Origin: Gammaproteobacteria bacterium
GTDB lineage: Bacteria > Pseudomonadota > Gammaproteobacteria > Eutrophobiales > Eutrophobiaceae
Direction: 5' to 3'
NCBI GenBank assembly: GCA_965200295.1
Contig: OZ241347.1
Location: 2,615,272 to 2,679,271, forward strand
DNA length: 64,000 bases
Positions 9,501-48,098 of this stretch are shown here, in pieces. Each line of letters starts with the position of its first letter. Position 1 is the stretch's first letter. The notes beneath the pieces are model-generated. The model ran no database searches and was not told the DNA's origin. It saw only the letters and a list, made by a program, of their open reading frames with translations. The translations under genes were made by a program, and so were the position numbers.

Positions 9501-10034
9501 GAAGTAGGGTTTGGCCTGTACATGAACCTGCTGGAACGGGCCGTGGCTTCGCTCAAGGCCGGGCGCCAACCGGAACTGGACCGCCCGCTGGACCACGGCA
9601 CGGAAATAGACCTGCATGTCCCCGCGCTGATACCGGCGGATTACCTGCCCGACGTACACACCCGGCTGGTCATGTACAAGCGCATCGCCGGGGCCGATGC
9701 CGAGCGCGCGCTGTGGGACCTGCAGGAAGAATGTATAGACCGCTTCGGCCTGCTGCCGGAGGCGCTCAGGAATCTGTTCCGCATCGCCCAACTCAAGCAA
9801 GGCGCCCAAGCCCTGGGGATACGCAAGATTGACTTAGCCGCCAAGGGCGGCCGCATACAGTTTGACGAGAACGCAGAGTTCGACCGGGTAAGGCTGATCA
9901 AACTGATCCAGGCTCACCCCGGCCGATACAAATTCGCCCAGGGCGGCAAACTCAGCATCAACCACGAGCTCGCCGACGCCGCCGCGCGCTTCAGTTTTCT
10001 TGAAGGTTTTTTAGGCGAACTAGCCCAACCTTAA
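6576..10034 (+). CDS. mfd: transcription-repair coupling factor
   Basis: 1152 aa; UvrB-homology N-terminus; DEAD/DEAH helicase motifs (GDSGFGKTEVA, DEEHRFG); TRG/TRCF C-terminus. Confidence 0.95.
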   Translation: MSVSPLQPVVPVTARERVVWEGLPGCGKALALATAARERDSLFVVIAADQAGAQRLMEELAFFNSPGSGLPLRSFPDWETLPYDRFSPYQDIVSERLATLVELRAMRAGILVVAVSTLMQRLPPAAYLHAHSLMLRAGQVLDTDNFRQELEHNGYRSVSQVMEHGDVAVRGSIIDIYPMGADTPFRLDLLDNEIDSIRTFDAETQRSLQQMRELRVLPAREVPLTAAAIDLFRSNWRQRFAGNPGNNPVYNDVSNGIAPAGIEYYLPLFYDHTSGLKDYFPANPTMVPDEGVYAAAQAFHELAQTRYEQGQHDSERPLLAPAELIYSPLQLFELLAPYPQIHLGATGLDSGAVKTVRYHATAPQKYPVNARAQDPLALLRAFMQEFDGRMLLVAESLGRRETILELFQAEKTRPSPCRDWDEFRAGNTRFGLTVAPLERGVTLARTGIAIISETQLFGERVQQRRLRKKARHLTDSIVNNLTELSIGAPVVHEEHGVGRYQGLVTLTVNELDTEFICLEYDQGDKLYVPVTALDRVSRFVGADAEQAPLHRLGSGHWLKAKQKALKRVYDVAAELLALHARRAAQQGHEFRVDNNAYQAFAQDFPFEETPGQAEAIAKVLEDMRAQTPMDRLICGDSGFGKTEVAMRAAFIAVENHKQVAVLAPTTLLAQQHYRNFSDRFADWPVRLAALSRFVSRKDQTAICADLNTGKIDIVIGTHKLLQDGLAFHNLGLIIIDEEHRFGVRQKEKLKSLRAQVDVLTLTATPIPRTLNLALSDLQSLSIIATPPSRRLPIKIFIREWDEVWLAEAMLRELKRGGQVYFVHNEISSIEKTANEVARLAPDARLRIAHGQMPEQQLEQVMLDFYHQRFNVLVCTTIIETGIDVPSANTIIINRADKFGLAQLYQLRGRVGRSHHRAYAYLVKPDRGAVSDSAARRFEAMAALEELGTGFTLATHDMEIRGVGEILGDEQSGHVQEVGFGLYMNLLERAVASLKAGRQPELDRPLDHGTEIDLHVPALIPADYLPDVHTRLVMYKRIAGADAERALWDLQEECIDRFGLLPEALRNLFRIAQLKQGAQALGIRKIDLAAKGGRIQFDENAEFDRVRLIKLIQAHPGRYKFAQGGKLSINHELADAAARFSFLEGFLGELAQP

Positions 10035-10042
10035 AGAAAATA

Positions 10043-10123
10043 TCAGTCAATCTTTAATACGCCGTAAAGCAGGACAGCCACATAAAAGGCTACACTTGCC
10101 GTCAGGGCTATAAAGGCAATCAT
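10043..10123 (-). CDS. small hydrophobic peptide (26 aa, MIAFIALTASVAFYVAVLLYGVLKID), copy 1
   Basis: ATG preceded by AGGAAA 5 nt upstream; single predicted TM helix; tandem paralog of the next peptide. Confidence 0.4.
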   Translation of the reverse strand: MIAFIALTASVAFYVAVLLYGVLKID

Positions 10124-10158
10124 ATTTTTCCTGCATGCTTCATATTACAGCGTGTCAA

Positions 10159-10236
10159 TCAAATTGTCAGTGCGCCGTAAAGCAGAACACCAACAAAAAA
10201 GACTGCACATGCTGTCAATGCAATAAATGCCATCAT
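10159..10236 (-). CDS. small hydrophobic peptide (25 aa, MMAFIALTACAVFFVGVLLYGALTI), copy 2
   Basis: ATG preceded by GAGAGGTGG; paralog of copy 1 (about 60% identical) with the conserved core AFIALTA...LLYG. Confidence 0.4.
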   Translation of the reverse strand: MMAFIALTACAVFFVGVLLYGALTI

Positions 10237-10387
10237 GTCTTGCCCACCTCTCTGATATGTTTTTGAATGCGTAGAAAAAGTACTAAATTGGCGCATCCCA
10301 ACATGGAAAGAAGCGCCACACCCGCCCAAAAAACCTCATTGATATTGTCAGACAGGTACAAACTCACCAGCCCGCTTATTATAAGGG

Positions 10388-10417
10388 AACCTCTAAAAAT
10401 GCCCTCCGTGGCATTTT
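10388..10417. repeat. left piece of a palindromic MITE-like element (cctctaaaaatgccctccgtggcatttt) interrupted by the IS110 element
   Basis: the right arm stops after ggcatttt; the missing tagag... resumes at 12204. Confidence 0.7.
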
Positions 10418-12203
10418 GCTATGTAACTTAATTATACCACTCTGTCATTAGGGCGCGCGCGGGTGGGTCTGCACAATGTGAGACCGTGAAGGGCGCCGGC
10501 GTTGCGGCGTGGCTCGCTCTGGCGTATGAGGTGGCCCCGCGTTGGCCTGTGGCCGTGAGGGAGCGTTGCGGCGACGCTGGCAGGTTGACCGGGGGATGTC
10601 AGGCGGCTTCGGGCATGTCAGGGGCTCTGTTGGGGGTGGGGTAGCCATATTTCTGTAGCATTTTGACCCAGCGCGGGGCATTGCGTTTGACCATGAGGGC
10701 CTCGTAGTCGGTGTGCGGGTCCTGGTAGGGCTGGCCGGTAATGAGCATGCGGTAGAGGGTACGCAGCAGTTTGTGTGCGGTGGCGACGGTGGCACGTTTG
10801 TAGCCGCGGCGCACGGTGAGGGCTTTATGGTAGCCTTGGAACTGGCAGTGGTGGGTGCGAGCGGCGCCGTGGGCGCACTCGATGAGCAGGGTGCGCAGGT
10901 GCGGGTTGCCCTGTCGGGTTCGGCCGTGGCGGCGTTTGCCGGCGCTTTCGTTGTTGCCGGGGCACAGGCCGGCCCAGGCGGCGCAGTGGCGGGCGGTGGG
11001 GAAGACCTTCACATCGGGGCCGAGTTCGATGAGCAGCGCGCGTGCGGCGGCGTGGTCGATGCCCGGCAGGGTCATCAGCAGGTCGAGTTGGGCCTGGTAG
11101 GGGGCGAGGTGTTGCCGGATGAAGGCATCGTACTGGGCGATACGGGCGTTGGCGTTGTCGAAGGCGGCGAGTTGGTCTTGGAGGACGAAGCGGGCCTCGG
11201 GGCGCAGGGTGGCGCTGAGTGCGTCGCCCAGGGCTGCCAGTCGGGGACGGACATGGCCGGAGAGGGTGGGCAGGATAGCTGCCGGGGTCAGTCCGGCGAC
11301 CAGGCCGTCGAGGATACGGCGACCGTTGACGCCGAACAGGTCTGAGAGGACTCCGCCGACCCGGAGACCGGCACCGTCGAGGCATTGATGGATGCGGGTC
11401 CGCAGGGTGGCGCGCAGGCGCACCACCTTGTGGCGTTGCCGTGACACCTTGCGCAGGGCGCGAAAGTCGGCGGGCGGCACGAAGCTGGGGCGGCACAGCC
11501 CGAACTGGCAGATACGCGCCAGCCACAGGCTGTCGGCGATGTCGGTCTTACGACCTTTGAGCTGCTTGACGTGCTGGGCATGCACTAAGAGGGGTTCGAT
11601 GCCGGCGCTCTCTAAGGCCTCGAAGACCACCTCCCAATAGATGCCCGTAGCTTCCATCACGGCGGCGCTGACCCGGTGCTCAAGCAGCCAGCCGGTCAGC
11701 TCGCGCAGGCCACTGGGCAGGGCGTTGAAGGTGCGGGTGTGAGTCTCGGCCGCCACGCCGGACTGTGCCAGACGCACGCTGGCAGTGATTTGCATCTTGT
11801 GTACGTCCAGACCCGCCGCGCGGGCGTGGATGACGTGTAAGGTATCAGTGTGTATAGTGTCAGGCATAACGCGTCCTCCGAAGTAAGTGCAAGTGTAGTC
11901 AGGGGCAAGCGCGGGCGGTCAACGGTTAGCAGGCTCGTTTCCGGGTGGGAAACGGCGCATTTTGCTATGCGTCCTCGACGACCTGCGTCGGGTACAAGGC
12001 GGGGCACGATGCCGTTGACCGGGAACAGTTTAGAGACGGGCTTATCAAGCACCGTAAAAAAGAGCGTTCTCGTTTCCCGCGCCTGCCCCGATAGTGTGCA
12101 TCAGGATGAGGCGTTAGCCAACGTCGGGGCTGCGGGGTGCCCGTACCCCCGGCGTTTCTCAGTTACATACCGGCGGGGTGTGCAGCGCTCTGATCATGAA
12201 GGT
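10418..12203 (-). mobile_element. IS110-family insertion sequence (~1.79 kb, no terminal inverted repeats) inserted into a palindromic repeat element
   Basis: boundaries inferred from the split repeat element (10388-10417 and 12204-12322); one internal DEDD-transposase gene. Confidence 0.7.
10599..11867 (-). CDS. IS110-family transposase (DEDD N-terminal domain plus transposase_20 C-terminal domain)
   Basis: 422 aa; GLDVHK motif near the N-terminus; typical IS110/IS1111 architecture. Confidence 0.9.
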   Translation of the reverse strand: MPDTIHTDTLHVIHARAAGLDVHKMQITASVRLAQSGVAAETHTRTFNALPSGLRELTGWLLEHRVSAAVMEATGIYWEVVFEALESAGIEPLLVHAQHVKQLKGRKTDIADSLWLARICQFGLCRPSFVPPADFRALRKVSRQRHKVVRLRATLRTRIHQCLDGAGLRVGGVLSDLFGVNGRRILDGLVAGLTPAAILPTLSGHVRPRLAALGDALSATLRPEARFVLQDQLAAFDNANARIAQYDAFIRQHLAPYQAQLDLLMTLPGIDHAAARALLIELGPDVKVFPTARHCAAWAGLCPGNNESAGKRRHGRTRQGNPHLRTLLIECAHGAARTHHCQFQGYHKALTVRRGYKRATVATAHKLLRTLYRMLITGQPYQDPHTDYEALMVKRNAPRWVKMLQKYGYPTPNRAPDMPEAA

Positions 12204-12322
12204 TTAGAGACGGAAACGAAAAAATGTGATTTTTCGTTTCCTTCATTTTCAAACACTTACGTGCTTAAAAATGGCAGCATGTCCCTATGCTGCACGGCCA
12301 CCTCTAATTTTTAGAGGTGGCC
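12204..12322. repeat. remainder of the long (five-hairpin) composite palindromic element, reverse orientation, ending in the gccacctctaatttttagaggtggc hairpin
   Basis: reverse complement matches the long copies at 38385-38526 and 51573-51720 almost base for base. Confidence 0.75.
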
Positions 12323-12377
12323 TAATGATTAACATCAAGCACACTGTTGCGGCGTTAGGTCATAGGAGTTATCGTTT

Positions 12378-13748
12378 ATGATTGGCATATTGCAAATGCT
12401 GCTGGCGTTCATCGTGGCGCTGGGAGTCCTGATCACGTTCCATGAGTTCGGCCACTTCTGGGTGGCTCGACGTTGTAACGTCAAGGTCCTGCAATTTGCG
12501 GTGGGCTTCGGGCGGCCGTTGTGGCGGCGCAAGTTCGGCGCTGATGACACCGAATTTGTCATTGGCATGGTGCCGTTGGGCGGCTACGTGAGAATGCTGG
12601 ATGAACGCGAGGCGCCGGTGTCGGCAGCCGAGCAGGGCCGGGCCTTTAACAACAAATCGCTGGGGCAACGATTCGCCATTGTTGCCGCCGGCCCCATTTT
12701 CAATTTCATCTTTGCCATCCTGGCGTACTGGCTGGTCTTCATAATTGGCATTACCGGGCTCAAGCCGGTGCTGGGTTCGGTGCAGGACGGCAAGCCGGTG
12801 GCGCAGTCCGGTTTGCAGGCGGGCGATGAGATTATTGCCATCGACGGGCAGGCGACGCCGACCTGGAATACCGCCTTGGAATATCTGGTGGCCGGCGTGG
12901 TCGAAGGCGATACTGCGGCGCTACGGGTACGCGACGGGCGCGGCGCCGAGCGGGCGCTGACGCTGGACCTGGGCGCCATTTCTATCGACGCAATGGCCGC
13001 GGGCAACCTGCTGGACTTGCTGGGTTTCGAGCCGGCGCGCCCGCGCGCGCCGGCGACGCTGGGGCAGGTCAGCTACCAGGGCGCGGCCTGGTGGGGCGGT
13101 CTGCGTGAGGCTGATGAAATCGTGGCCGTTGACGGCGTGCCCGTGCAGGGTTGGCAGCACTGGGTTGAGCTGATCAGGGCGGCGCCTGATACGCCTATGA
13201 CTGTCACCATAGCCAGAGACGGCGCCACCATAGACATGGTAGTCACGCCCGAGGCAAAGACCAGTGAGCAGGGCGAACGCATCGGCTTTATCGGGGTCGG
13301 TCTCGACCCTGCGGCCGGTATGGATGACTCCCTGTTGGCACGCGAAGCCTATCCCTGGCATCAGGCGGCATGGAAAGGAGTAGTTAAAACCATTGATATG
13401 TCTGTTATGACCCTGCAGATATTAGGGCGCATGATTACCGGTCAGGCCTCCCTGAAGAACCTCAGCGGCCCGGTCAGCATTGCCCAGTACGCAGGACAGA
13501 CCGCGCAACTGGGTATAGTTGCATTCCTGGGTTTCCTGGCGCTGGTCAGCATCAGCCTGGGGATTTTGAATCTGCTGCCGATTCCCATGCTCGACGGCGG
13601 TCACCTGTGTTACTATCTGGTAGAGTTTGTCAAAGGCAGCCCGGTGTCGGACGCGGTGCAACTGCTGGCCCAGCGCGTGGGGCTGGTGCTGTTGTTCAGC
13701 CTGATGGCGCTGGCGATTTACAATGACGTCCTGAGACTGGTCGGTTAA
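12378..13748 (+). CDS. rseP: sigma-E regulator site-2 protease RseP (zinc metalloprotease)
   Basis: HEFGH zinc motif at the N-terminus; PDZ domains; C-terminal LDGG motif; AGGAG RBS. Confidence 0.9.
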   Translation: MIGILQMLLAFIVALGVLITFHEFGHFWVARRCNVKVLQFAVGFGRPLWRRKFGADDTEFVIGMVPLGGYVRMLDEREAPVSAAEQGRAFNNKSLGQRFAIVAAGPIFNFIFAILAYWLVFIIGITGLKPVLGSVQDGKPVAQSGLQAGDEIIAIDGQATPTWNTALEYLVAGVVEGDTAALRVRDGRGAERALTLDLGAISIDAMAAGNLLDLLGFEPARPRAPATLGQVSYQGAAWWGGLREADEIVAVDGVPVQGWQHWVELIRAAPDTPMTVTIARDGATIDMVVTPEAKTSEQGERIGFIGVGLDPAAGMDDSLLAREAYPWHQAAWKGVVKTIDMSVMTLQILGRMITGQASLKNLSGPVSIAQYAGQTAQLGIVAFLGFLALVSISLGILNLLPIPMLDGGHLCYYLVEFVKGSPVSDAVQLLAQRVGLVLLFSLMALAIYNDVLRLVG

Positions 13749-13772
13749 AATAGCTCGTAGCTTTGCTTATTT

Positions 13773-16700
13773 ATGGCGAGAGACAGGCAAAATCCTGCGT
13801 GGCTTGCTGCCTTGTTGGCGGCATCGCTGCTCATCCTGACCAGCCTGCCTGCCCAAGTCCTGGCGCAGCAGGTGCTCGTCAGCAACCTCGGCCAAGCCGA
13901 CTTCGCCACCGCCAGCCCCATTGCCAGCTTGCTTGGCGTGTTCGATCACGCCCAGCAATTCACCACTGGCAGCAACAGCGCAGGCTACTGGCTGAGCAGC
14001 GTCGAGATTGAATTCGGCCGACTCGACGCCGGCTTCCCTTTTTCGGTGTCGATTCGCACCAATGCCAGCGGCTCGCCGGGAACAGTGGTGGGTACACTGG
14101 CGAATCCCTCCTACACCGCGTTCACCACCGACACGGTGCTGAAGTTCACGGCGGCGGGCGACGGCATCGCCCTTGCGGCCAGCACGTCGTATTTCCTCGT
14201 CCTCGACGTCACTAGCGACTCCGGCAGCAACTTCGCCACTTGGCGGGTCACCACCTCAATGAGCGAGGACAGCGGCGGCGCCAGCGGCTGGAGCATCGCC
14301 GATCTGCACCGCTTACGGCAGAACGTGGCTGACGCTGCATGGGTCAACAACGTAGTCACCTCCACCCTCAAGATCCGCATCAACGGCTCGGCCGTCACCC
14401 TCCCCACGGTCACCATCGCCCGCGTTGCCACGCCGGTCACCGAAGGCGCGGCTGCCCGCTTCACCGTCAGCCGCACGGGCGCGACCACGGGGGCGTTGGC
14501 GGTGCAAGTGTCGGTGTCCGAGAACAGTGCTGGCGGGCAGAACTTCGTGGCGTCAACCAACGAAGGCGCTAAATCAGTCAGCATTCCTATGGGTTCCGCA
14601 TCGGCGGTCTATTCCGTGGCGACCGTGGGCGATGCCATCGACGAGCCGGACGGCGCGGTGACCGTGACGCTGGCGAGCGGTTCCGGCTATACCGTCGGCA
14701 GCCCGTCAACGGCGAGCGTGATGGTCAACGACGACGACCTGCCGGTTGTCACCATTACCAGCGGTGCATCGTCGGTGACGGAGGGCACGGCGGCAAGCTT
14801 CACGGTGACCCGCGCCGGTCTGACGACGGCGGCGCTGACGGTGAACGTCAATGTCGCGGATGTCGCGGGCAGCGATTTCGTGGCGTCGGACGACGAAGGC
14901 GCGGACACGGTGACGATCCAGGCGGGACAAGCCTCGGCAGCCTACAGCGTCGCCACCGTGGCGGACAGAGTGGTTGAGGCGAGTGGAAATGTGATAGTTA
15001 CCGTATCGACGGGCACGGGCTATACCGTCGGTAGTCCGCCATCCGCGAACGTGATGGTTAACGACGACGATACCGCTGCCGTGCTCATCAACGGCGCGGA
15101 CAGCAACATCACGCTTTCAGTCGGCGAGGACGACGGCACCGCCACCTACACCATCCGGCTCGACAGTCAGCCGAGCCACAATGTCACGGTCACAGTGAGT
15201 TCGGCCAGCGAAAACACAGCCACCGTGAACAAGGCGGGCGGCTCGGCCGGCGAGACGCAGACGCTCACCTTCACGCCGAGCGGCACCGGCGCGTGGAATG
15301 TCGCGCAGACCATCACTATAACCGGTGTCAACAACACTAGCGACGATGCCAACAACCGGCGCACTTCGCTCATCACCCACACGGCGGCTTCGAGCGACGC
15401 CAATTACAGCGGCATCACCCCCATCCCGACCGTCACAGTCACGGTGACCGACGACGACACGCCCGAGTTGACCGTGTCGGCACAGGGCGGCGTCACAACC
15501 GTCAACGAGAACGGCGCCGCCGCGACGATCATCGTCACCTCGAATATTCAAGTCGACGGCTCAATCGACTACGGCCAGCCGAGCGTGTCCACGGGCGGCG
15601 CCGTCAGTGCCGACGGAACGACTATTGCTGGCGGCAACACGAGCAACACCTATACCGTCAGCGCGAGCGACAACAACCGCGACGAGGCCGACTGGTCGAT
15701 CACCACCGGCATTGCCGCCGGCACTGGCTACACACTCGGCTCGCCGAGCGCCGTCATGCTCACTGTTCGCGACGACGACCCGACGGTCGTCTCGCTCGCT
15801 GGCGGTGGCCGCGTGTTCGAAGGCGAGGGGACGACATTCACGGTCACGCTTGGTCGCGACCTCGCCGCCGGCGAGATCATTGACGTGCCGCTGGCCATCA
15901 CCGGTGCTGGCATCACCCCGAGCGACTGGCGTTTGGCGCTTGCGAGCGGCATGGGTCTCAACACAGGCGTGACGCTGAATGGCGCCAACACAGCCACGCC
16001 GCAGCTTCGCTTCGCAGGCGCCGGCGCGCGCACGGCGACGCTGACGCTGACCGCCGAGGCGAGTAGCGGCGGCAAGACAATACGAGTGGAGCTAGGACCG
16101 GATGGCAGCGGCGCCAACGGGTTTGATCGCAGCGGTCTTGGCACCAACGTCGGCGGCGGCGCGGACCCGCACGCCACGGCTCTTCGAATCATGCTGGTGG
16201 TCACTGCCGATACCGTCGTCAACGACCGCGACTTCCTCGCTTTTGTGCGTGCCCCTGGCGAAACATCGGCATCCAGGCGGACTGAAGGCTCGCGTCTGAC
16301 GCTGTCCGTCCACCGTATCGCCTTCACGTCCGACAACAACAACCTGCACACGCCAGACGACTGGGGGTTCCGGCTCTGCTTCACCGGCGCCGCGACGCCC
16401 GGCGCGGACTTTTCGGTCAGCCACGGCGGCGGGCGCACATCGCTCGATCAAGAGGGCTGCACACGGACGAACAGCGCGGAGGACGGCACCGCGTTGCCCG
16501 CGCGACTGAGCGTCGCGCGCTTCTACATCAAGCTCTTGCACGACGATTTGGACGAGAGCGATGAGCGCGTTGTCGCGACCTTGACGCGAACGATTAACAC
16601 CGGGGTTTCCGGGCAAGGATTGAGTGAGTTTCGCTTCACCATCAGCGAGCCGCCCCTGATCGACAAGGTGCGCCACTACACCAGTGAAATTTGGCGCGGC

Positions 16701-19568
16701 TACGATCATGTCCTGCGTTGGCAGCGTGTGCTCTTTGCGCTCAGCGACGGCAGCGAAGGCGAAGGCCCGGCCATGACCGCAACCGAGGCGCAAGACTATG
16801 CGAATCGCGGCATGACCCGCTGGGCGCCAGTGGCGGCGGCGCTCTCACCGCTGCAGACGCAATCGGCAAGCCCACAGGGTGAGGGCAGCGAGGCAAGCTC
16901 ACAGGATGAGGATAGCGAGGCAAGCTCACAGGATGAGGATAGCGAGGCAAGCTCACAGGATGAGGATAGCGAGGCAAGCTCACAGGATGAGGATAGCGAG
17001 GCAAGCTCACAGGATGAGGATAGCGAGGCAAGCCCGCAGAGTGAGGGCAACGAGGTAACCCCGGATAGCGAGACCGAGGGTGAGGCGCCCGCAGACGATG
17101 ATGTGCAGGGTGACGCGCCTTCGGATAGCGAAGCGCCGGTCGAGCCGGTTGCAGCAGAGGACACGTTCGTGCCGGATGCCGCGCTGGTCGCGAACATCCG
17201 TGCCTGGCGCAGCGAGACCCAGCACGGTCAGGCGCATGTGGATCGGTGGACGCGGGTGCTGATCGCGTTCAAAGTAGAAACCGGTAGCCTCGCGCCGATG
17301 AGTGCGGCCGAGGCGCAGACATACCTCGACAAAGGCTGGACGCGCTGGGAACCCGTGGTGACGGCGCTTAAGTCGATGCAAGCTGACACGCAGCAAGCGG
17401 CCGCCTCGGAGCAGAACGACACGCAAGCGACTACCGAGCAAGACGAGGCGCCGCAAGCCACAGACGAGGAGAACGAACCCGCGCCCACAGAGCAGGACGA
17501 AGCGCCAGCGGCCGAGGACGAGCAGGACGAGCCCGTGACCATGGCACAGGGCGATGAACCCGCCCCCACCCCGGCATTGTCGGTCTCGGATGCGAGCGGC
17601 GCAGAAGGTTCGACCATAAAGTTCACCATCACGCTTGCCCCGGCCGCAACAGACACCGTGAGCGTGTGGGTGTCCACCAGAGAGTCGCAGCCGGTGTCCG
17701 CGCATAAGAACAGGGACTACCAGCACAACGGCGAGTGGCTGACGTTCAAGCCCGGCGAGACCCGGCAGCACCACCGGGTTTACACCCTTGACGATGCGCA
17801 CGACGACTCGGGAGAAACTTTCGAGCTGGTACTGTCACAGGCGCGTGGCGCGGTGATCGCCGATGCAGTAGGTGTGGGCACGATCATGAACGACGACCCA
17901 CTGCCGGCGGCCCACCTCGCACGGTTCGGACGCACCGTGGCCGAGCACGCGCTCGGCGGCATCGCCGGGCGCTTGGAGGCACCGCGCGCGCCGGGGCTGC
18001 GCGGTGTGTTTGCCGGCCGGGCATTCAGCGCGGCGCCGGGGAGTAAGACCGGCCACCGGCGGCGTAGCGGGGGGGGTACCGGCGCGCCGAACGGGCTCGA
18101 TGGCTTCCATACCCCCGGCGGGGGCGTCGGCGTGAACCCATCGTCGAGACGATCAGCCTTGGCGGGCGACCTCCATTCAGCCGTTGCTCAGTCACTCGAT
18201 GCCCAATCATTTGATACCCAGTCACCCGACGCTGGCGCCTCCATGACCGCGCGTGCAGTACTGTTAGGGTCGAGCTTCACGCTGACCCGGGCCGCCGACG
18301 GCGCCGGCGGCAGTCTGGCTTTCTGGGGCCGCGCCGCGCAAAGTCACTTTGACGGCGTTGACCGCGGCCACGGTACCGATGTGACTCTCAACGGTAAGGT
18401 CACCACCGCCATGCTGGGCGCCGACTACGCCCGGGGCGACTGGCTCGTCGGCCTGGCGCTGACCGAGACCGCGTCCACAGGCGGCTATAGCGCCGCCGCC
18501 GGTAATCCCTGTATGGGTGAGATCGGAGCCGGGGCTATGGCCGATACTATGGACAGCCCCCCGGAATTGTGCGCTACGGACGGCCCTGGCGCTGCGGCTG
18601 GTCTCGGTGCTACGGCAGGCCTGGGCGCCGGTGAGGTAGAGTCTTCCCTGACGGCCGTCATTCCCTACGCCACGCGCCGGGTCGCCGAGCGGCTGACATT
18701 GTGGGGCGCCACCGGCTATGGCCGAGGCGCAGTGACACTGACGCCGGGCGCCGGTGAAACCCTCACCGGCGACGCCCCCCTCAGTGCTGACACCGACTTT
18801 ACCCTGGCCGCGGTAGGCCTGCGCGGTGACCTGCTCGCTCCCGTCGGATTCGGGCCGGCGCTGGCGCTCACCTCCGATGCCCTGTGGACGCGTACGACCT
18901 CAGCGGGGACGCACGGCCTCCTGGCCTCAGCATCCGCCGTGACCCGGCTGCGGCTGGGTCTGGAGGGCAGCTGGGCGCTGGACTTTGCCGGCGCCCGGCG
19001 TGTTACGCCGACGCTGGCCGTCGGCGCCCGCCACGACGGTGGCGACGCCGAGACCGGCTTTGGTATTGAGCTTGGCGGTGGCGTGCAGTGGATCGAGCCG
19101 CGCCTCGGCCTGACGCTCGACATCTCGGCCCGCACGCTGCTGGCGCATGGAGATGACGACATCAAAGACCGGGGCGTCTCCGCGGCGCTGACCTTCGACC
19201 CGGCGCCGGGGACGCCCTTCGGCCCCCGGCTCAGCCTGCGCCAGGACTTCGGTGGGCCGGCTCAGGGCGGCCTTGATGCACTGTTCCGACCGGAGACGCC
19301 GCAGCCGCGGCACGGCGCTCATGACGCCGCCCGTTGGACGCTGGAGGCGGACTACGGCCTGCCCGCCTTGCAGGGGCGCTTCAGCGCCCGCCCGCTGGCC
19401 GGTATCGGACGCGCCGGCGGGGTGCAGGACTACCACCTCGGCTGGCAGTTGACGCCGGCGGCGGCGCACGCCCCCGACATCTCTTTCAGTGCACGCGCAG
19501 TGCGGCGTGTACCGGCGCGGGCCGCGGCTGAACATGGGATTGAACTCAGGCTCAACTGGCAGTGGTAG
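13773..19568 (+). CDS. giant (1931 aa) surface protein: signal peptide, N-terminal domain, five or more Calx-beta-like ~110-aa repeats, duplicated unknown domain, acidic 9-aa tandem tract, C-terminal autotransporter beta-barrel
   Basis: repeats ending in VNDDD with TEG...F.V.R motifs (Calx-beta-like); C-terminal ~300 aa with alternating beta-strand pattern ending LRLNWQW (type Va translocator signature). Confidence 0.8.
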   Translation: MARDRQNPAWLAALLAASLLILTSLPAQVLAQQVLVSNLGQADFATASPIASLLGVFDHAQQFTTGSNSAGYWLSSVEIEFGRLDAGFPFSVSIRTNASGSPGTVVGTLANPSYTAFTTDTVLKFTAAGDGIALAASTSYFLVLDVTSDSGSNFATWRVTTSMSEDSGGASGWSIADLHRLRQNVADAAWVNNVVTSTLKIRINGSAVTLPTVTIARVATPVTEGAAARFTVSRTGATTGALAVQVSVSENSAGGQNFVASTNEGAKSVSIPMGSASAVYSVATVGDAIDEPDGAVTVTLASGSGYTVGSPSTASVMVNDDDLPVVTITSGASSVTEGTAASFTVTRAGLTTAALTVNVNVADVAGSDFVASDDEGADTVTIQAGQASAAYSVATVADRVVEASGNVIVTVSTGTGYTVGSPPSANVMVNDDDTAAVLINGADSNITLSVGEDDGTATYTIRLDSQPSHNVTVTVSSASENTATVNKAGGSAGETQTLTFTPSGTGAWNVAQTITITGVNNTSDDANNRRTSLITHTAASSDANYSGITPIPTVTVTVTDDDTPELTVSAQGGVTTVNENGAAATIIVTSNIQVDGSIDYGQPSVSTGGAVSADGTTIAGGNTSNTYTVSASDNNRDEADWSITTGIAAGTGYTLGSPSAVMLTVRDDDPTVVSLAGGGRVFEGEGTTFTVTLGRDLAAGEIIDVPLAITGAGITPSDWRLALASGMGLNTGVTLNGANTATPQLRFAGAGARTATLTLTAEASSGGKTIRVELGPDGSGANGFDRSGLGTNVGGGADPHATALRIMLVVTADTVVNDRDFLAFVRAPGETSASRRTEGSRLTLSVHRIAFTSDNNNLHTPDDWGFRLCFTGAATPGADFSVSHGGGRTSLDQEGCTRTNSAEDGTALPARLSVARFYIKLLHDDLDESDERVVATLTRTINTGVSGQGLSEFRFTISEPPLIDKVRHYTSEIWRGYDHVLRWQRVLFALSDGSEGEGPAMTATEAQDYANRGMTRWAPVAAALSPLQTQSASPQGEGSEASSQDEDSEASSQDEDSEASSQDEDSEASSQDEDSEASSQDEDSEASPQSEGNEVTPDSETEGEAPADDDVQGDAPSDSEAPVEPVAAEDTFVPDAALVANIRAWRSETQHGQAHVDRWTRVLIAFKVETGSLAPMSAAEAQTYLDKGWTRWEPVVTALKSMQADTQQAAASEQNDTQATTEQDEAPQATDEENEPAPTEQDEAPAAEDEQDEPVTMAQGDEPAPTPALSVSDASGAEGSTIKFTITLAPAATDTVSVWVSTRESQPVSAHKNRDYQHNGEWLTFKPGETRQHHRVYTLDDAHDDSGETFELVLSQARGAVIADAVGVGTIMNDDPLPAAHLARFGRTVAEHALGGIAGRLEAPRAPGLRGVFAGRAFSAAPGSKTGHRRRSGGGTGAPNGLDGFHTPGGGVGVNPSSRRSALAGDLHSAVAQSLDAQSFDTQSPDAGASMTARAVLLGSSFTLTRAADGAGGSLAFWGRAAQSHFDGVDRGHGTDVTLNGKVTTAMLGADYARGDWLVGLALTETASTGGYSAAAGNPCMGEIGAGAMADTMDSPPELCATDGPGAAAGLGATAGLGAGEVESSLTAVIPYATRRVAERLTLWGATGYGRGAVTLTPGAGETLTGDAPLSADTDFTLAAVGLRGDLLAPVGFGPALALTSDALWTRTTSAGTHGLLASASAVTRLRLGLEGSWALDFAGARRVTPTLAVGARHDGGDAETGFGIELGGGVQWIEPRLGLTLDISARTLLAHGDDDIKDRGVSAALTFDPAPGTPFGPRLSLRQDFGGPAQGGLDALFRPETPQPRHGAHDAARWTLEADYGLPALQGRFSARPLAGIGRAGGVQDYHLGWQLTPAAAHAPDISFSARAVRRVPARAAAEHGIELRLNWQW
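16880..17040. repeat. perfect 27-bp tandem repeat x5 (caggatgaggatagcgaggcaagctca) encoding (SSQDEDSEA)n inside the giant gene
   Basis: seen directly; in-frame acidic low-complexity linker. Confidence 0.9.
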
Positions 19569-19663
19569 GCGCGGCCGGGGGCGGTTCCGGCATTTGGCGG
19601 GAATGGCTGAGTGTGATAAATGAGTGTTGATTTTTTAGTCGTAGTGTTTCAGTATAAGCCGCT

Positions 19664-21982
19664 ATGTTAGTAGAAAGATTGAAAGCCTGCCTGATTTTGG
19701 CGGCGTTGTTTTTGCCTTGCGTGTCTGGCGGGCTTGTGGCGCAGGAATTTGTCATCGAGGATATCCGGGTCGAGGGCTTGCAGCGCCTGACTCCGGGCAC
19801 CGTATTTAACTACCTGCCGCTGGAAGTGGGCGATAAATTTAATCCGGAAGTGTCGTCCGAGGCGGTCAGCGCCTTGTTCAAAACCGGTTTTTTCGATGAC
19901 GTGCAACTGCAACGGGACGGCAATGTGCTGGTGCTGGTGCTCAGGGAGCGGGCGGCCATCGGCAGTATCGAGATCAGCGGCAACAAGGACATCAAGACCG
20001 AAGACCTGCTGGACGGGCTGAACCAGATCGGCTTTGCCGAAGGGCGAGTGTTTGACCAGTCGCAACTCGATGGCCTGGAACGGGAGTTGCGCCGCCAGTA
20101 TTTTTCCGCCGGTAAATACGCGGTAAACATCAATTCTGAGGTAACGCCGCTATCCAATAATCGGGTGGCGGTCGCCATCGACATTTCGGAAGGCAAGGCC
20201 GCGCGTATCAAGCAAATCAATATCGTTGGTAACCAGTCGTTTCGGGAAGGTGATTTGCTGGACCAGTTTGAGTTGTCCAAACCCACCCTGTTTTCGTTTT
20301 TTACCAAGGACGACCAGTATTCACGACAGAAGCTGTCCGGCGACCTGGAAACCCTGCGCTCGTTTTACCTGGACCGGGGTTACGTCAATTTCAGCATCGA
20401 TTCCACCCAGGTATCCATCACCCCCGACAAGAAAGATATTTACATCACCATCAATATCACCGAAGGCGGGCAATATACCATCTCCGGGGTGAAACTGGCG
20501 GGCGAGTTCATCCTGCCGGAAGCAAGCCTGTATAACCTCATCAGCGTCACCCGGGGCAGCCTGTTCTCGCGCAAGCAGGTGACCGATAGCAGCGAGCGTA
20601 TGACCGAGCGCTTAGGCGGTTCCGGTTACGCGTTTGCCAACGTCAATTCCATCCCCGACATCAATGAGGACGACAACACGGTAGAGGTCACGTTTTTTGT
20701 GGACCCGGGCAAGCGGGTGTATGTGAGGCGCATCAATTTTTCCGGCAACACCCGCACCCGGGACGAGGTGCTGCGTCGGGAAATGCGTCAGCATGAGGCC
20801 GGCTGGATTTCCACCCCCAAGGTGGAGCGCGGCAAGATCCGCTTGCAGCGGCTGGGCTTTTTCGAGGAAGTGAACGTGGAAACACCGGCCATCGCCGGTT
20901 CCGCCGACCAGGTTGACGTCGATTATACCGTTACCGAGAAGCCGTTCGGCAACTTTCTGGCGGGCCTGGGGTTTTCCCAGAACCAGGGGTTGATCTTCCA
21001 GACCAGCATCACTCAGGATAATTTTCTGGGTTCCGGCAAGCGCATACAGTTTGCCTTTAACAACAGCGACATCAATCGCCGCTTTGCCTTGGGCTACGTC
21101 AACCCCTACTACACCGTGGACGGGATCAGCCGCGGGTTTAACCTGAATTACCAGGAAACGGAGGCCTATGACGCCAACATCACCGCGTTCGATAGCCGGG
21201 TGATAGGGGCTGGTGTGAGTTTTGGCCTACCGGTGACGGAGTATAATTTCGTCAGCACCGCCTTCGGCTATGAAAATACGCGCCTGTCCGAAGATCGTTT
21301 CTTCGCCCAACAGGTGGTGGATTTTATTGAACGGGAAGGCAGCAAGTTCGATATTCTGCGTCTGTCTGCGGCGTTTTCCTACGACACGCGCAACCGGGCG
21401 ATATTGCCCACCCGCGGCGTGCAGCACCGCTTCAGTTCGGAGATATCCATACCGTCATTCGGTAATTCCCTGGAATTTTTCAAGGTAGGCTACCGCACTC
21501 AGTGGTATTATCCGGTATTGCGTGAATTCATTTTTACCGTAAAGGGAGATTTCGGCTATGGTGACGGTCTGTTCGGCACCGATGAACTGCCGTTCTTTGA
21601 GAACTTCTATGCTGGCGGCCCGCGTTCGGTGCGCGGCTACGAGGAAAATACTTTGGGTCCCAAGGATACGCCGGTGCGGGGCGGCACCCGGCGGCGGCCG
21701 CTGGGCGGCAATATCAAGGTGGTCGGCGGCGCCGAGATGATCTTTCCGCTGCCGTTTCTCAAGGACTTCAAGCAGGTCCGGTTTGCCGCATTTTTTGACG
21801 GCGGCAACGTGTATTCCAGCGATGAGTCGTTTGAATTCAGTGAGCTCAGGTACTCCACCGGCCTGAGCGGCATCTGGATCTCACCTTTTGGCCTGGTAAG
21901 TGTTAGTATAGCCAGACCCATTGGTGACAAGGCAGGTGATGAGACGCAACCGTTCCAGTTTACTTTTGGTTCAACTTTTTAG
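19664..21982 (+). CDS. bamA: outer membrane protein assembly factor BamA
   Basis: 772 aa; five POTRA repeats plus Omp85 barrel; C-terminal ...FQFTFGSTF. Confidence 0.95.
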   Translation: MLVERLKACLILAALFLPCVSGGLVAQEFVIEDIRVEGLQRLTPGTVFNYLPLEVGDKFNPEVSSEAVSALFKTGFFDDVQLQRDGNVLVLVLRERAAIGSIEISGNKDIKTEDLLDGLNQIGFAEGRVFDQSQLDGLERELRRQYFSAGKYAVNINSEVTPLSNNRVAVAIDISEGKAARIKQINIVGNQSFREGDLLDQFELSKPTLFSFFTKDDQYSRQKLSGDLETLRSFYLDRGYVNFSIDSTQVSITPDKKDIYITINITEGGQYTISGVKLAGEFILPEASLYNLISVTRGSLFSRKQVTDSSERMTERLGGSGYAFANVNSIPDINEDDNTVEVTFFVDPGKRVYVRRINFSGNTRTRDEVLRREMRQHEAGWISTPKVERGKIRLQRLGFFEEVNVETPAIAGSADQVDVDYTVTEKPFGNFLAGLGFSQNQGLIFQTSITQDNFLGSGKRIQFAFNNSDINRRFALGYVNPYYTVDGISRGFNLNYQETEAYDANITAFDSRVIGAGVSFGLPVTEYNFVSTAFGYENTRLSEDRFFAQQVVDFIEREGSKFDILRLSAAFSYDTRNRAILPTRGVQHRFSSEISIPSFGNSLEFFKVGYRTQWYYPVLREFIFTVKGDFGYGDGLFGTDELPFFENFYAGGPRSVRGYEENTLGPKDTPVRGGTRRRPLGGNIKVVGGAEMIFPLPFLKDFKQVRFAAFFDGGNVYSSDESFEFSELRYSTGLSGIWISPFGLVSVSIARPIGDKAGDETQPFQFTFGSTF

Positions 21983-46964: not shown

Positions 46965-47055
46965 GGAGAGGTGGCAGAGCGGTTGAATGCACCGGTCTTG
47001 AAAACCGGCAAGGGTTGATAGCCCTTCGTGGGTTCGAATCCCACCCTCTCCGCCA
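46965..47055 (+). tRNA. tRNA-Ser (anticodon UGA), class II with long variable arm
   Basis: cloverleaf: acceptor GGAGAGG/CCUCUCC; anticodon loop CUUGAAA; T-loop GGTTCGAATCC; encoded CCA. Confidence 0.9.
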
Positions 47056-47067
47056 ATAACAACCATG

Positions 47068-47100
47068 AACAAGGGCGGTCATTGTGCCGCCCTTGTTTGG
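47068..47100. terminator. GC-rich hairpin (aacaagggcgg-N8-ccgcccttgtt) followed by TTTGGTTGG
   Basis: intrinsic-terminator-like; lies between the tRNA and the convergent Cys-rich gene. Confidence 0.45.
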
Positions 47101-47174
47101 TTGGGGTTGGTTGCGTTCATTGCAATAACGAATCTGTTTTGAGGGACGATCCGAAGACCGCCCCGGTGCGTCCG

Positions 47175-48098
47175 TCAATCACACCCATAGCCATTGTACT
47201 GGACCTCGAAGATCGCGCGTGGGTTGTTCACGACCCGGTAGTGCTGCGTGTTGTCGCGTAAGTTCACGGCGGTTGGCAGAGTCCAACCATATCCATAATT
47301 AGGGGTCGTATCACAGATCGGATCGCTGATTCTGTTCGGCACCGAATTGCACCATGGGCGGCCTGAGTTGACAGGTCCACTTACCGTACAACCATCCTGC
47401 CACGTATACGTCTCCGCGCCCGGCGCCTGGACACGCACCCGGCAATTTACTTCTTTGTTCGTTATAAAAGTGCACCACGCACCAGTGGCGTTACTGGGTG
47501 GGGTGGGGCAGCAATCATGCCCATTGCACTCGGTCTCCACTTTTCTGCCGGCCCCCGTAAACACCCCCCGCTGCGACGAGATCGCCGTCCCGCCCGGAGC
47601 GCCCCGGCAGTCGCTGCAGGAGGTCAGGAGGCTGACCCGGATCACCCGTCGTTCGGATACCGGCATGGGCGCGTAAGAAGATGCCTTCTGCCTGAAACGG
47701 ATGATGTTGTCCCCTTTTCGGAATGTCACTTTTGCCTGCCCATTGGCCAAATTCGCCCCATCAACAAACACGCCGCCGCCGACATTGTACTCTATAACGT
47801 CGTGGGGGCTGAACTGGAGCCGCGCCTGTGCCCAACCGTCCGTGTAGTCCGATCCCGGTTCAAAGAACCCGCCCCACGCCTCGACATTCACCGCCGATTC
47901 CGTGCTGGGCATTCCCGGATCGCAGGCGTCCAGAACCTGCGGCCCCTTGTATTCGAGCCAGATTTTCGCCTGGCCCTGTGTGTTCTGAGAGGTGGCCCAC
48001 ACCGGCGCGGCCATCACCGTCGCCACCAGCGCGGCGGTTACTGCGGCTAATTTAGCAAGGGGGGGGGGGGGGGGGGGGGGGGTAAGTAAGTGTTTCAT
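47175..48098 (-). CDS. secreted cysteine-rich protein of unknown function with a poly-Pro stretch in the signal-peptide region
   Basis: 307 aa; MKHLLT-P7-LAKLAAVTAALVATVMAAPVWA signal; ~20 Cys; no recognisable family. Confidence 0.55.
   Translation of the reverse strand: MKHLLTPPPPPPPLAKLAAVTAALVATVMAAPVWATSQNTQGQAKIWLEYKGPQVLDACDPGMPSTESAVNVEAWGGFFEPGSDYTDGWAQARLQFSPHDVIEYNVGGGVFVDGANLANGQAKVTFRKGDNIIRFRQKASSYAPMPVSERRVIRVSLLTSCSDCRGAPGGTAISSQRGVFTGAGRKVETECNGHDCCPTPPSNATGAWCTFITNKEVNCRVRVQAPGAETYTWQDGCTVSGPVNSGRPWCNSVPNRISDPICDTTPNYGYGWTLPTAVNLRDNTQHYRVVNNPRAIFEVQYNGYGCD
48059..48082. repeat. 24-nt G homopolymer (poly-C on the coding strand) within codons 6-14 of the Cys-rich protein gene
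   Basis: seen directly; encodes T-P7; slipped-strand contingency-locus candidate. Confidence 0.9.

Follow-up and report, generated by a model that had tools for sequence, protein, structure and literature searches.

The 64,000-nucleotide window analysed here comes from a Gammaproteobacteria bacterium genome (assembly GCA_965200295.1, contig OZ241347.1, positions 2,615,272 to 2,679,271 of the forward strand) and carries, between rseP and bamA, a gene for a protein of 1931 amino acids (aa). This gene is one mosaic member of a large undescribed family, whose proteins share a C-terminal module of a helix and a beta-barrel. It probably encodes a giant surface adhesin that is anchored, and presumably also translocated, by its own type V-like barrel; the same reading holds that the position beside bamA is meaningless and that the gene is a recent mosaic. 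The integrity of the gene, the identities of its domains, the barrel fold, the size and distribution of the family, the insertion and the mosaicism are treated as demonstrated.

The gene is a single open reading frame (ORF) of 1931 codons plus a stop, without an internal stop codon. A look-up of its exact product sequence finds no record. Full-length homologues are collinear with its product from end to end, P0004 over residues 17-1931 and P0006 over residues 15-1931, so the gene is not a frameshifted assembly of several ORFs, a possibility raised in the first-pass annotation. Because only four in-frame sense codons lie upstream, the start at 13773 is unambiguous. A Shine-Dalgarno sequence is not recognisable before this ATG in the 24-bp gap that follows rseP (13749-13772). 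By eye, the N-terminus resembles a signal peptide, MARDRQNPAWLAALLAASLLILTSLPAQVLA/QQ, with two arginines in the n-region, a hydrophobic core and a VLA-QQ junction. The gene has a GC content of 0.668 and a GC content at third codon positions (GC3) of 0.787, against a GC content of 0.591 for the whole window and GC3 values of 0.65-0.75 for the window's other genes. Its features are the following:

13773..19568, + strand: whole gene, 1931 aa, single ORF with full-length collinear homologues
13773..13865, + strand: predicted Sec-type signal peptide, aa 1-31, cleavage after VLA, by inspection
13881..14387, + strand: choice-of-anchor R domain, aa 37-205, NCBIfam NF041539
14400..16208, + strand: divergent Calx-beta-like repeats R1-R5, aa 210-322, 323-433, 434-562, 563-669 and 670-812, by hhalign
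16209..16643, + strand: R6, beta-rich module of uncertain affinity, aa 813-957
16644..16868, + strand: RW domain copy 1, aa 958-1032
16869..17156, + strand: acidic linker 1, aa 1033-1128, which holds the 27-bp array
16890..17024, + strand: five perfect 27-bp tandem copies encoding EASSQDEDS (Tandem Repeats Finder: 6.3 copies at 97%)
17157..17387, + strand: RW domain copy 2, aa 1129-1205, predicted small four-helix bundle
17388..17564, + strand: acidic linker 2, Q/E/D/P-rich, aa 1206-1264, from sequence
17565..17897, + strand: bona fide Calx-beta domain, aa 1265-1375, start of the conserved C-terminal module
17898..17978, + strand: conserved 27-residue helix, aa 1376-1402
17979..18257, + strand: Gly/Pro/Ala-rich disordered linker, aa 1403-1495
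18258..19565, + strand: C-terminal outer-membrane beta-barrel, aa 1496-1931, about 18 modelled strands, ending ...LRLNWQW

The region conserved across the family corresponds to aa 1255-1931; identity is about 50%, and the region invariably closes the protein at its C-terminal end. It opens with a true Calx-beta domain, identified both by hidden Markov model match and by fold. Residues 1280-1358 score 43.2 bits against Pfam Calx-beta PF03160 (threshold 27), the sole Calx-beta in the protein to pass Pfam, and the family profile matches NCX1 CBD1 in a search of PDB sequences (E 6e-14). The helix that follows, PLPAAHLARFGRTVAEHALGGIAGRLE, is the family's most conserved stretch, with L, R, F, G and R invariant in 21 sequences. 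Behind it, the linker of about 90 aa varies in length among homologues and falls in gap-rich, non-conserved alignment columns.

An AlphaFold2 model of the module, generated from the 21-sequence alignment, places in order a Calx-beta sandwich, the 27-residue helix (fragment residues 122-148), about 90 disordered residues and about 18 long strands spanning about 430 aa. The mean predicted local distance difference test score (pLDDT) is 69, falling to 21-41 in the linker, and the predicted template modelling score (pTM) is 0.58; the strand count of about 18 and the location of the helix are thus predictions at the level of a model. In strands 8-18, the least confident ones included, hydrophobic and polar faces alternate strongly throughout the family. 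Alternation of the transmembrane type is strongest in strands 13-18, and the terminal aromatic residue comes after them: the last strand is EHGIELRLNWQW, the C-terminus reads ...IELRLNWQW, and the final W is invariant in the 21 sequences. Barrels of 22 strands align with the model over 330-350 residues, which speaks for a strand number above 12; the picture from Foldseek is likewise non-discriminating. The generic OMP_b-brl model gives weak matches in 4 of the 21 members. When PDB chains are searched by sequence and with the family profile, only the Calx-beta part finds a match and the barrel finds none, similarity to 18-strand channels included. Those channels (OprD/Occ, MOMP, maltoporin and AlgE) differ further in being stand-alone and free of a passenger.

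Two further details of the barrel were observed. At the turn from strand 9 to strand 10 sits an invariant RHDGGDAETG motif (window 19029-19058, aa 1753-1762) that looks like an acidic Ca2+-binding loop. Strands 3 and 4 are joined by a long disordered loop, which holds a conserved cysteine pair (aa 1580-1600) and gives the strongest coevolution signals.

The helix and barrel define a very large unnamed family that extends across many bacterial phyla. An exhaustive profile search, using the helix, linker and barrel only against 1.84 billion cluster representatives (50% identity clusters), recovers 9,531 family clusters at E ≤ 1e-3, 7,567 at E ≤ 1e-10 and 4,560 at E ≤ 1e-30. The module is C-terminal in all of the best 150 matches, whose lengths range from 515 to 7,300 aa. 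When one genome per species is scanned, at least 299 family loci emerge, with identities of 37-58%, in metagenome-assembled genomes (MAGs) of Alpha- and Gammaproteobacteria, Binatia, Acidobacteria, Spirochaetia, Nitrospirales, Gemmatimonadota, Thermodesulfobacteriota and further groups. Copies per genome reach four or more, with four each in OZ243917.1 and CAXXPN01 and three each in OZ244909.1 and OZ243916.1. A literature search found no paper on a Calx-beta autotransporter. The first-pass annotation had called Calx-beta passengers on such a translocator uncommon, a view that gives way to a family with thousands of members in metagenomic data.

Upstream of this module, the passenger combines several domain types. 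The N-terminal domain, first described as being of unknown fold, matches NF041539 at 96.5 bits (cut-off 30; E 1.5e-27) over profile positions 1-154 of 155. Choice-of-anchor domains are named for their occurrence on surface proteins with differing anchoring signals. Repeats R1-R5 behind it appear as Calx-beta homologues by profile-profile comparison only. With query profiles built from the family and a negative control at 0.1% probability, hhalign against the bona fide Calx-beta profile gives 98.0% for R1, 97.8% for R2, 94.9% for R3, 97.1% for R4 and 89.1% for R5. Pfam matches on these repeats are sub-threshold (Calx-beta at 17.3 bits on R1, LapA on R2 and R3). R6 is without a Pfam match and reaches 43% in the same comparison, so its membership is not established. 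Five Calx-beta-like repeats and one further Calx-beta module, as initially proposed, are therefore retained, but a ..DDD ending is found in only four repeats (VNDDD twice, VTDDD and VRDDD) rather than a VNDDD in each.

The two RW segments of about 75 aa had been read as internal duplicates of an unrecognised domain. They share 41% identity over 79 aa (pairwise E 1e-16), and the family profile matches copy 1 at E 5.6e-28, so that by sequence comparison they are true duplicates; structure prediction yields a small four-helix bundle with confidence (pLDDT 89). Counted on the 120 best homologues and 82 fetched loci, the RW domain occurs 141 times in 80 of the former, mostly two per protein, and is present in 34 of the latter, while a word-indexed search with the 77-aa RW profile gave six short proteins. 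Several RW copies in the family (loci L003-L082) carry a conserved cysteine at both ends, which suggests a disulfide. Between the two copies, the perfect period-27 run extends over 16887-17033, with degenerate copies on either side and the product (EASSQDEDS)5. This array, the second acidic linker and the signal peptide had all been noted from the start, and the sequence bears them out.

On this architecture, a mechanism can be proposed in which the Sec-type signal peptide, recognised by inspection, would direct the protein to the periplasm. The C-terminal residues, about 430 in number, form an outer-membrane beta-barrel at the level of fold and end in a terminal aromatic of the kind inserted by the beta-barrel assembly machinery (BAM); the N-terminal residues, about 1370, would be threaded to the cell surface through or alongside this barrel. 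The surface part would then consist of the choice-of-anchor R head, five or six Calx-beta-type sandwiches, two RW four-helix bundles and two acidic spacers, and could serve as a Ca2+-stiffened, ligand-binding stalk. The conserved helix after the last Calx-beta may act like the pore-plugging linker helix of autotransporters. The barrel is predicted to be distantly related to autotransporter barrels but enlarged (about 18 strands versus 12), which would make the protein a type V-like variant and not a classical type Va system. Translocation, Ca2+ dependence, adhesive function and a sponge ligand are what we infer from these features.

Structurally, the passenger resembles giant Ca2+ adhesins, such as the type I-secreted LapA, SiiE and MpIBP and the Calx-beta adhesin BapP of Pseudoalteromonas tunicata (PMC12153261), in its long stalk of Calx-beta/Ig-like sandwiches, its distinct N-terminal head, its sub-threshold LapA-domain matches and its D-rich ..NDDD inter-domain motifs, which suggest Ca2+ rigidification. 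Unlike type I adhesins, the window protein has neither RTX repeats nor a type I signal, no ATP-binding cassette (ABC), membrane fusion protein (MFP) or TolC genes adjoin it, and it is anchored by a fused C-terminal barrel instead of by retention in a TolC-like channel. A type I-secreted RTX adhesin was considered as a candidate and rejected: there is no RTX/HemolysinCabind match, a barrel forms the C-terminus, and the gene is flanked by rseP and bamA.

Comparison with homologous loci reveals how the gene was assembled. One segment stands out:

13863..16873, + strand: shared passenger cassette, 97.6% DNA identity to locus L002 (MAG OZ241339.1) and 95.2% to locus L087

This cassette of about 3 kb runs from just past the signal peptide, at the mature N-terminus, through RW copy 1 and stops where the 27-bp array starts. 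Downstream of it, identity between the window gene and P0001, its closest allele at locus L002, is 82% at the nucleotide level over RW copy 2, the Calx-beta domain and the helix, and about 50% at the amino acid level over the barrel. The closest translocator belongs to P0002 (helix 96%, barrel 81-83% aa identity), whose passenger is more distant (56-74%). The BamA encoded in the P0001 genome is not among the 120 best BamA matches, all of which are at least 62% identical. The passenger is thus far more alike than a housekeeping gene, which implies recent exchange. Judged from these sequence comparisons, the gene is most likely a recent mosaic acquisition with a recombination boundary at the 27-bp repeat array. 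P0001 is without the whole SSQDEDSEA array, and its acidic linker 2 is shorter; since it differs in both acidic linkers, the length polymorphism predicted in the first-pass annotation is directly seen.

The same cassette, at 95% nucleotide identity, also occurs in a 1139-aa protein at L087 6001-9420 (ERZ25067984 ctg15202_11x_l; also P0008). This protein ends after a different second RW domain, without the Calx-beta, helix and barrel module and with no translocator gene after it; it may be a pseudogene or a secreted form, or may have given or received the cassette in an exchange. Elsewhere in the window, positions 47051-48037 show 84% DNA identity to OZ241339.1 (L080 12952-13924), the MAG that also carries the shared cassette. 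They overlap an ORF on the - strand (47175-48098) for a secreted-looking, Cys-rich hypothetical protein of 307 aa, which may be another exchanged gene.

The position of the gene between rseP and bamA was examined in related genomes, whose regions were fetched through their closest BamA homologues. The surrounding features are:

12378..13748, + strand: rseP (site-2 protease), left flank, Peptidase_M50 E 5.7e-72 plus PDZ, collinear with rseP of L083-L086
13749..19663, + strand: 5.9-kb segment in place of the 76-351 bp rseP-bamA spacer of relatives, from comparison with related genomes
19664..21982, + strand: bamA, right flank, five POTRA domains plus Omp85
10599..11867, - strand: IS110-family transposase at the synteny break upstream of rseP, DEDD_Tnp_IS110 plus Transposase_20

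All three genes lie on the same strand, with rseP ending 24 bp upstream of the adhesin gene and bamA starting 95 bp downstream, followed by skp-lpxD-fabZ-lpxA-lpxB-rnhB-dnaE in an order shared with relatives. In three relatives (BamA 93, 86 and 82% identical), the rseP-bamA spacer measures 351, 201 and 76 bp and is gene-free. Because the window is collinear with these relatives through rseP and again from bamA past dnaE, the segment at 13749-19663 is an insertion, and the early observation of a 1931-aa protein wedged between two normally adjacent genes holds. Around the insertion, neither a target-site duplication nor terminal inverted repeats were detected. A fourth relative (L084 3372-10000; GCA_028819495.1, JAPPLI010000203.1; BamA 92%) has another cassette of 5.5 kb between rseP and bamA, with genes for a TolC-like outer-membrane efflux protein (OEP), a PAS-containing MFP, an ABC ATPase and a MacB/FtsX permease and two small ORFs. 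The spacer therefore seems to be a recurrent insertion site, or hot spot, in this lineage rather than a functional neighbourhood.

Further upstream, the synteny itself is broken. Relatives have rpsB-tsf-pyrH-frr-uppS-cdsA-dxr ahead of rseP; the window has mfd and the IS110 transposase instead, with 23-nt inverted repeats around the transposase at 10378-10400 and 12307-12329. None of the displaced rpsB...dxr genes lies within the 64-kb window. Just past mfd, the stretch at 10000-10500 is AT-rich (GC 0.446 versus 0.59 for the window), and two 83-nt direct repeats, 75% identical, occupy 10049-10131 and 10162-10244.

This location invites a functional explanation, and the first-pass annotation took it to suggest coupling to BamA-dependent assembly. 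Such a tie, with expression or assembly linked to the sigma-E/BAM envelope operon, is in keeping with the tight same-strand embedding of the gene and with the need of any outer-membrane barrel for BAM. A scan for promoters and terminators around the gene also finds nothing above chance, which makes co-transcription with the rseP-bamA operon plausible. The wider family nevertheless renders functional coupling very improbable: bamA, rseP, skp or lpxD occurs within 10 kb of none of the 82 family loci, and the closest homologues, P0001, P0004 and P0007, sit in three unrelated neighbourhoods. At the site itself, the three closest genomes with an empty site have no gene between rseP and bamA, a sister genome carries the unrelated OEP-MFP-ABC cassette, and the adjoining sequence has an IS110 element and a break in synteny. 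Since none of these 82 loci is near bamA and the spacer accepts other cargo, the adjacency looks accidental and without functional meaning.

A more serious alternative concerns the barrel, which may belong to a divergent but classical type Va protein, with a true 12-strand barrel, the helix in its pore, and the extra AlphaFold2 strands as an artefact or extension. Classical type Va autotransporters, such as NalP, AIDA-I, EspP, Hbp and BrkA (PF03797, TIGR01414), have a 12-strand barrel of about 250-300 residues. The order of signal peptide, N-terminal passenger, helix and C-terminal barrel with an aromatic end is the same in the window protein, and NCBIfam TIGR01414 shows a marginal similarity to its first strands: taken by itself, the window barrel reaches 15.4 bits (E 0.0074, cut-off 16) over its first 60 or so residues, and the match disappears once the low-complexity linker is included with the C-terminus. 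Eleven other members give scores of 28.8, 27.5, 18.2, 17.4, 15.9 and 11.1 bits and, in five, no match, so that several exceed the cut-off. These matches fall at model positions of about 156-226 and mostly cover the first 70 or so barrel residues only, about 60-70 of the model's 277 barrel positions. Because they are marginal and barrel-only, NCBI names the family unevenly, with full-length members as 'hypothetical protein' and one barrel-only fragment as 'autotransporter outer membrane beta-barrel domain-containing protein'. On the other side, PF03797 matches 0 of the 21 members even at E ≤ 1, the beta region spans about 430 aa versus about 280 in type Va, and the modelled strands beyond the twelfth are those with the strongest transmembrane alternation and with the terminal aromatic behind them. 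The helix is separated from strand 1 by about 90 disordered residues, the passenger consists of Calx-beta sandwiches and four-helix bundles and not of a beta-helix, and a Calx-beta directly before the helix is always part of the family module. Taken together, a classical type Va identity appears unlikely. Of the autotransporter-type barrel of about 300 aa named in the first-pass annotation, the barrel and its ...LRLNWQW end therefore stand, the length is revised, and the assignment as an autotransporter in the strict sense is not supported. The barrel could also be a mere membrane anchor or porin-like channel, with the N-terminal region held in the periplasm. LptD, BamA, PgaA, BcsC and PelB combine periplasmic N-terminal domains with a C-terminal barrel in this way, and the evidence for passenger translocation in the window protein is indirect. 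This arrangement is quite improbable in view of family proteins of up to 7,300 aa with Calx-beta/Ig-like arrays, acidic spacers and a choice-of-anchor head, an architecture that would suit an extracellular adhesin and seems too long for the periplasm. POTRA, TPR and LptD-type domains are not found in the window protein, which thus also lacks the POTRA domains and 16-strand Omp85 barrel of types Vb and Vd.

The self-translocating adhesin favoured here has points that weigh against it as well. PF03797 has no match in the whole protein, the C-terminal 557 aa, the barrel alone or the 21 family members (E ≤ 1-10), and the distance between helix and barrel is unlike that of type Va. The barrel model is of moderate confidence, built from 21 sequences, with pLDDT 50-78 in its last six strands. 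A mean-field coevolution analysis of 229 family sequences (effective number 118) recovered its adjacent-strand controls only in part and was underpowered, and its helix-barrel result was discarded. Surface exposure, Ca2+ binding and adhesion are all deduced from sequence features. P0007 carries the same passenger without a barrel, so this translocator may not be an absolute requirement for the passenger, or P0007 may be a pseudogene. Finally, the link to sponges is drawn from isolate and taxon names and from the literature, not from sample metadata.

Those names nonetheless point in one direction: the family apparently occurs above all in sponge-associated bacteria. The clues are isolate names (RHO, CAR, COS and SB bins), the taxon Candidatus Poriferihabitaceae, and metaMDBG-style contig names (PMC12859430, PMC8163846). 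An enrichment of Calx-beta domains has been reported for sponge symbionts of different phyla (PMC9531527, PMC11706023); lateral transfer of attachment genes among such symbionts is also reported, as is the presence of classical secretion systems in few of their lineages (PMC8163846). The Sponge Aggregation Factor of the presumed host environment also has extracellular Calx-beta arrays, which there serve Ca2+-dependent adhesion (PMC5400394, PMC11670116). Unlike the window protein, it consists of parts of a eukaryotic secreted proteoglycan with Wreath domains; the homology shown is limited to the Calx-beta fold, and mimicry is speculation. A bolder proposal, rather unlikely at present, is that the module represents an unrecognised type V-like subclass, a self-translocator of about 18 strands with a Calx-beta domain and a plug helix as constant parts. 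Sponge bacteria of many phyla would use it to display exchangeable adhesin cassettes, whose arrays would bind or mimic the Aggregation Factor, and co-resident symbionts would swap these cassettes by recombination at the acidic-linker repeats.

At the level of the local genome, the finding is ordinary: an acquired gene in an insertion-tolerant spacer. Its broader significance lies in the family, thousands of whose proteins, some of up to 7,300 aa, are now annotated as 'hypothetical'. Pfam and NCBIfam are without models for the helix and barrel module, for the four-helix RW domain and for the divergent repeats of Calx-beta type; the alignments assembled here could serve to build them. Recent cassette exchange is directly evidenced by 95-98% DNA identity across loci. 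Should the strand count of about 18 hold and the barrel export its own passenger, secretion of the type V-like kind would be structurally broader than its five or six accepted subclasses. A novel subclass, if true, would help explain how symbionts without classical secretion systems display host-interaction proteins. If the sponge association holds, the family offers a testable candidate for attachment and host recognition that is common to very different symbiont phyla.

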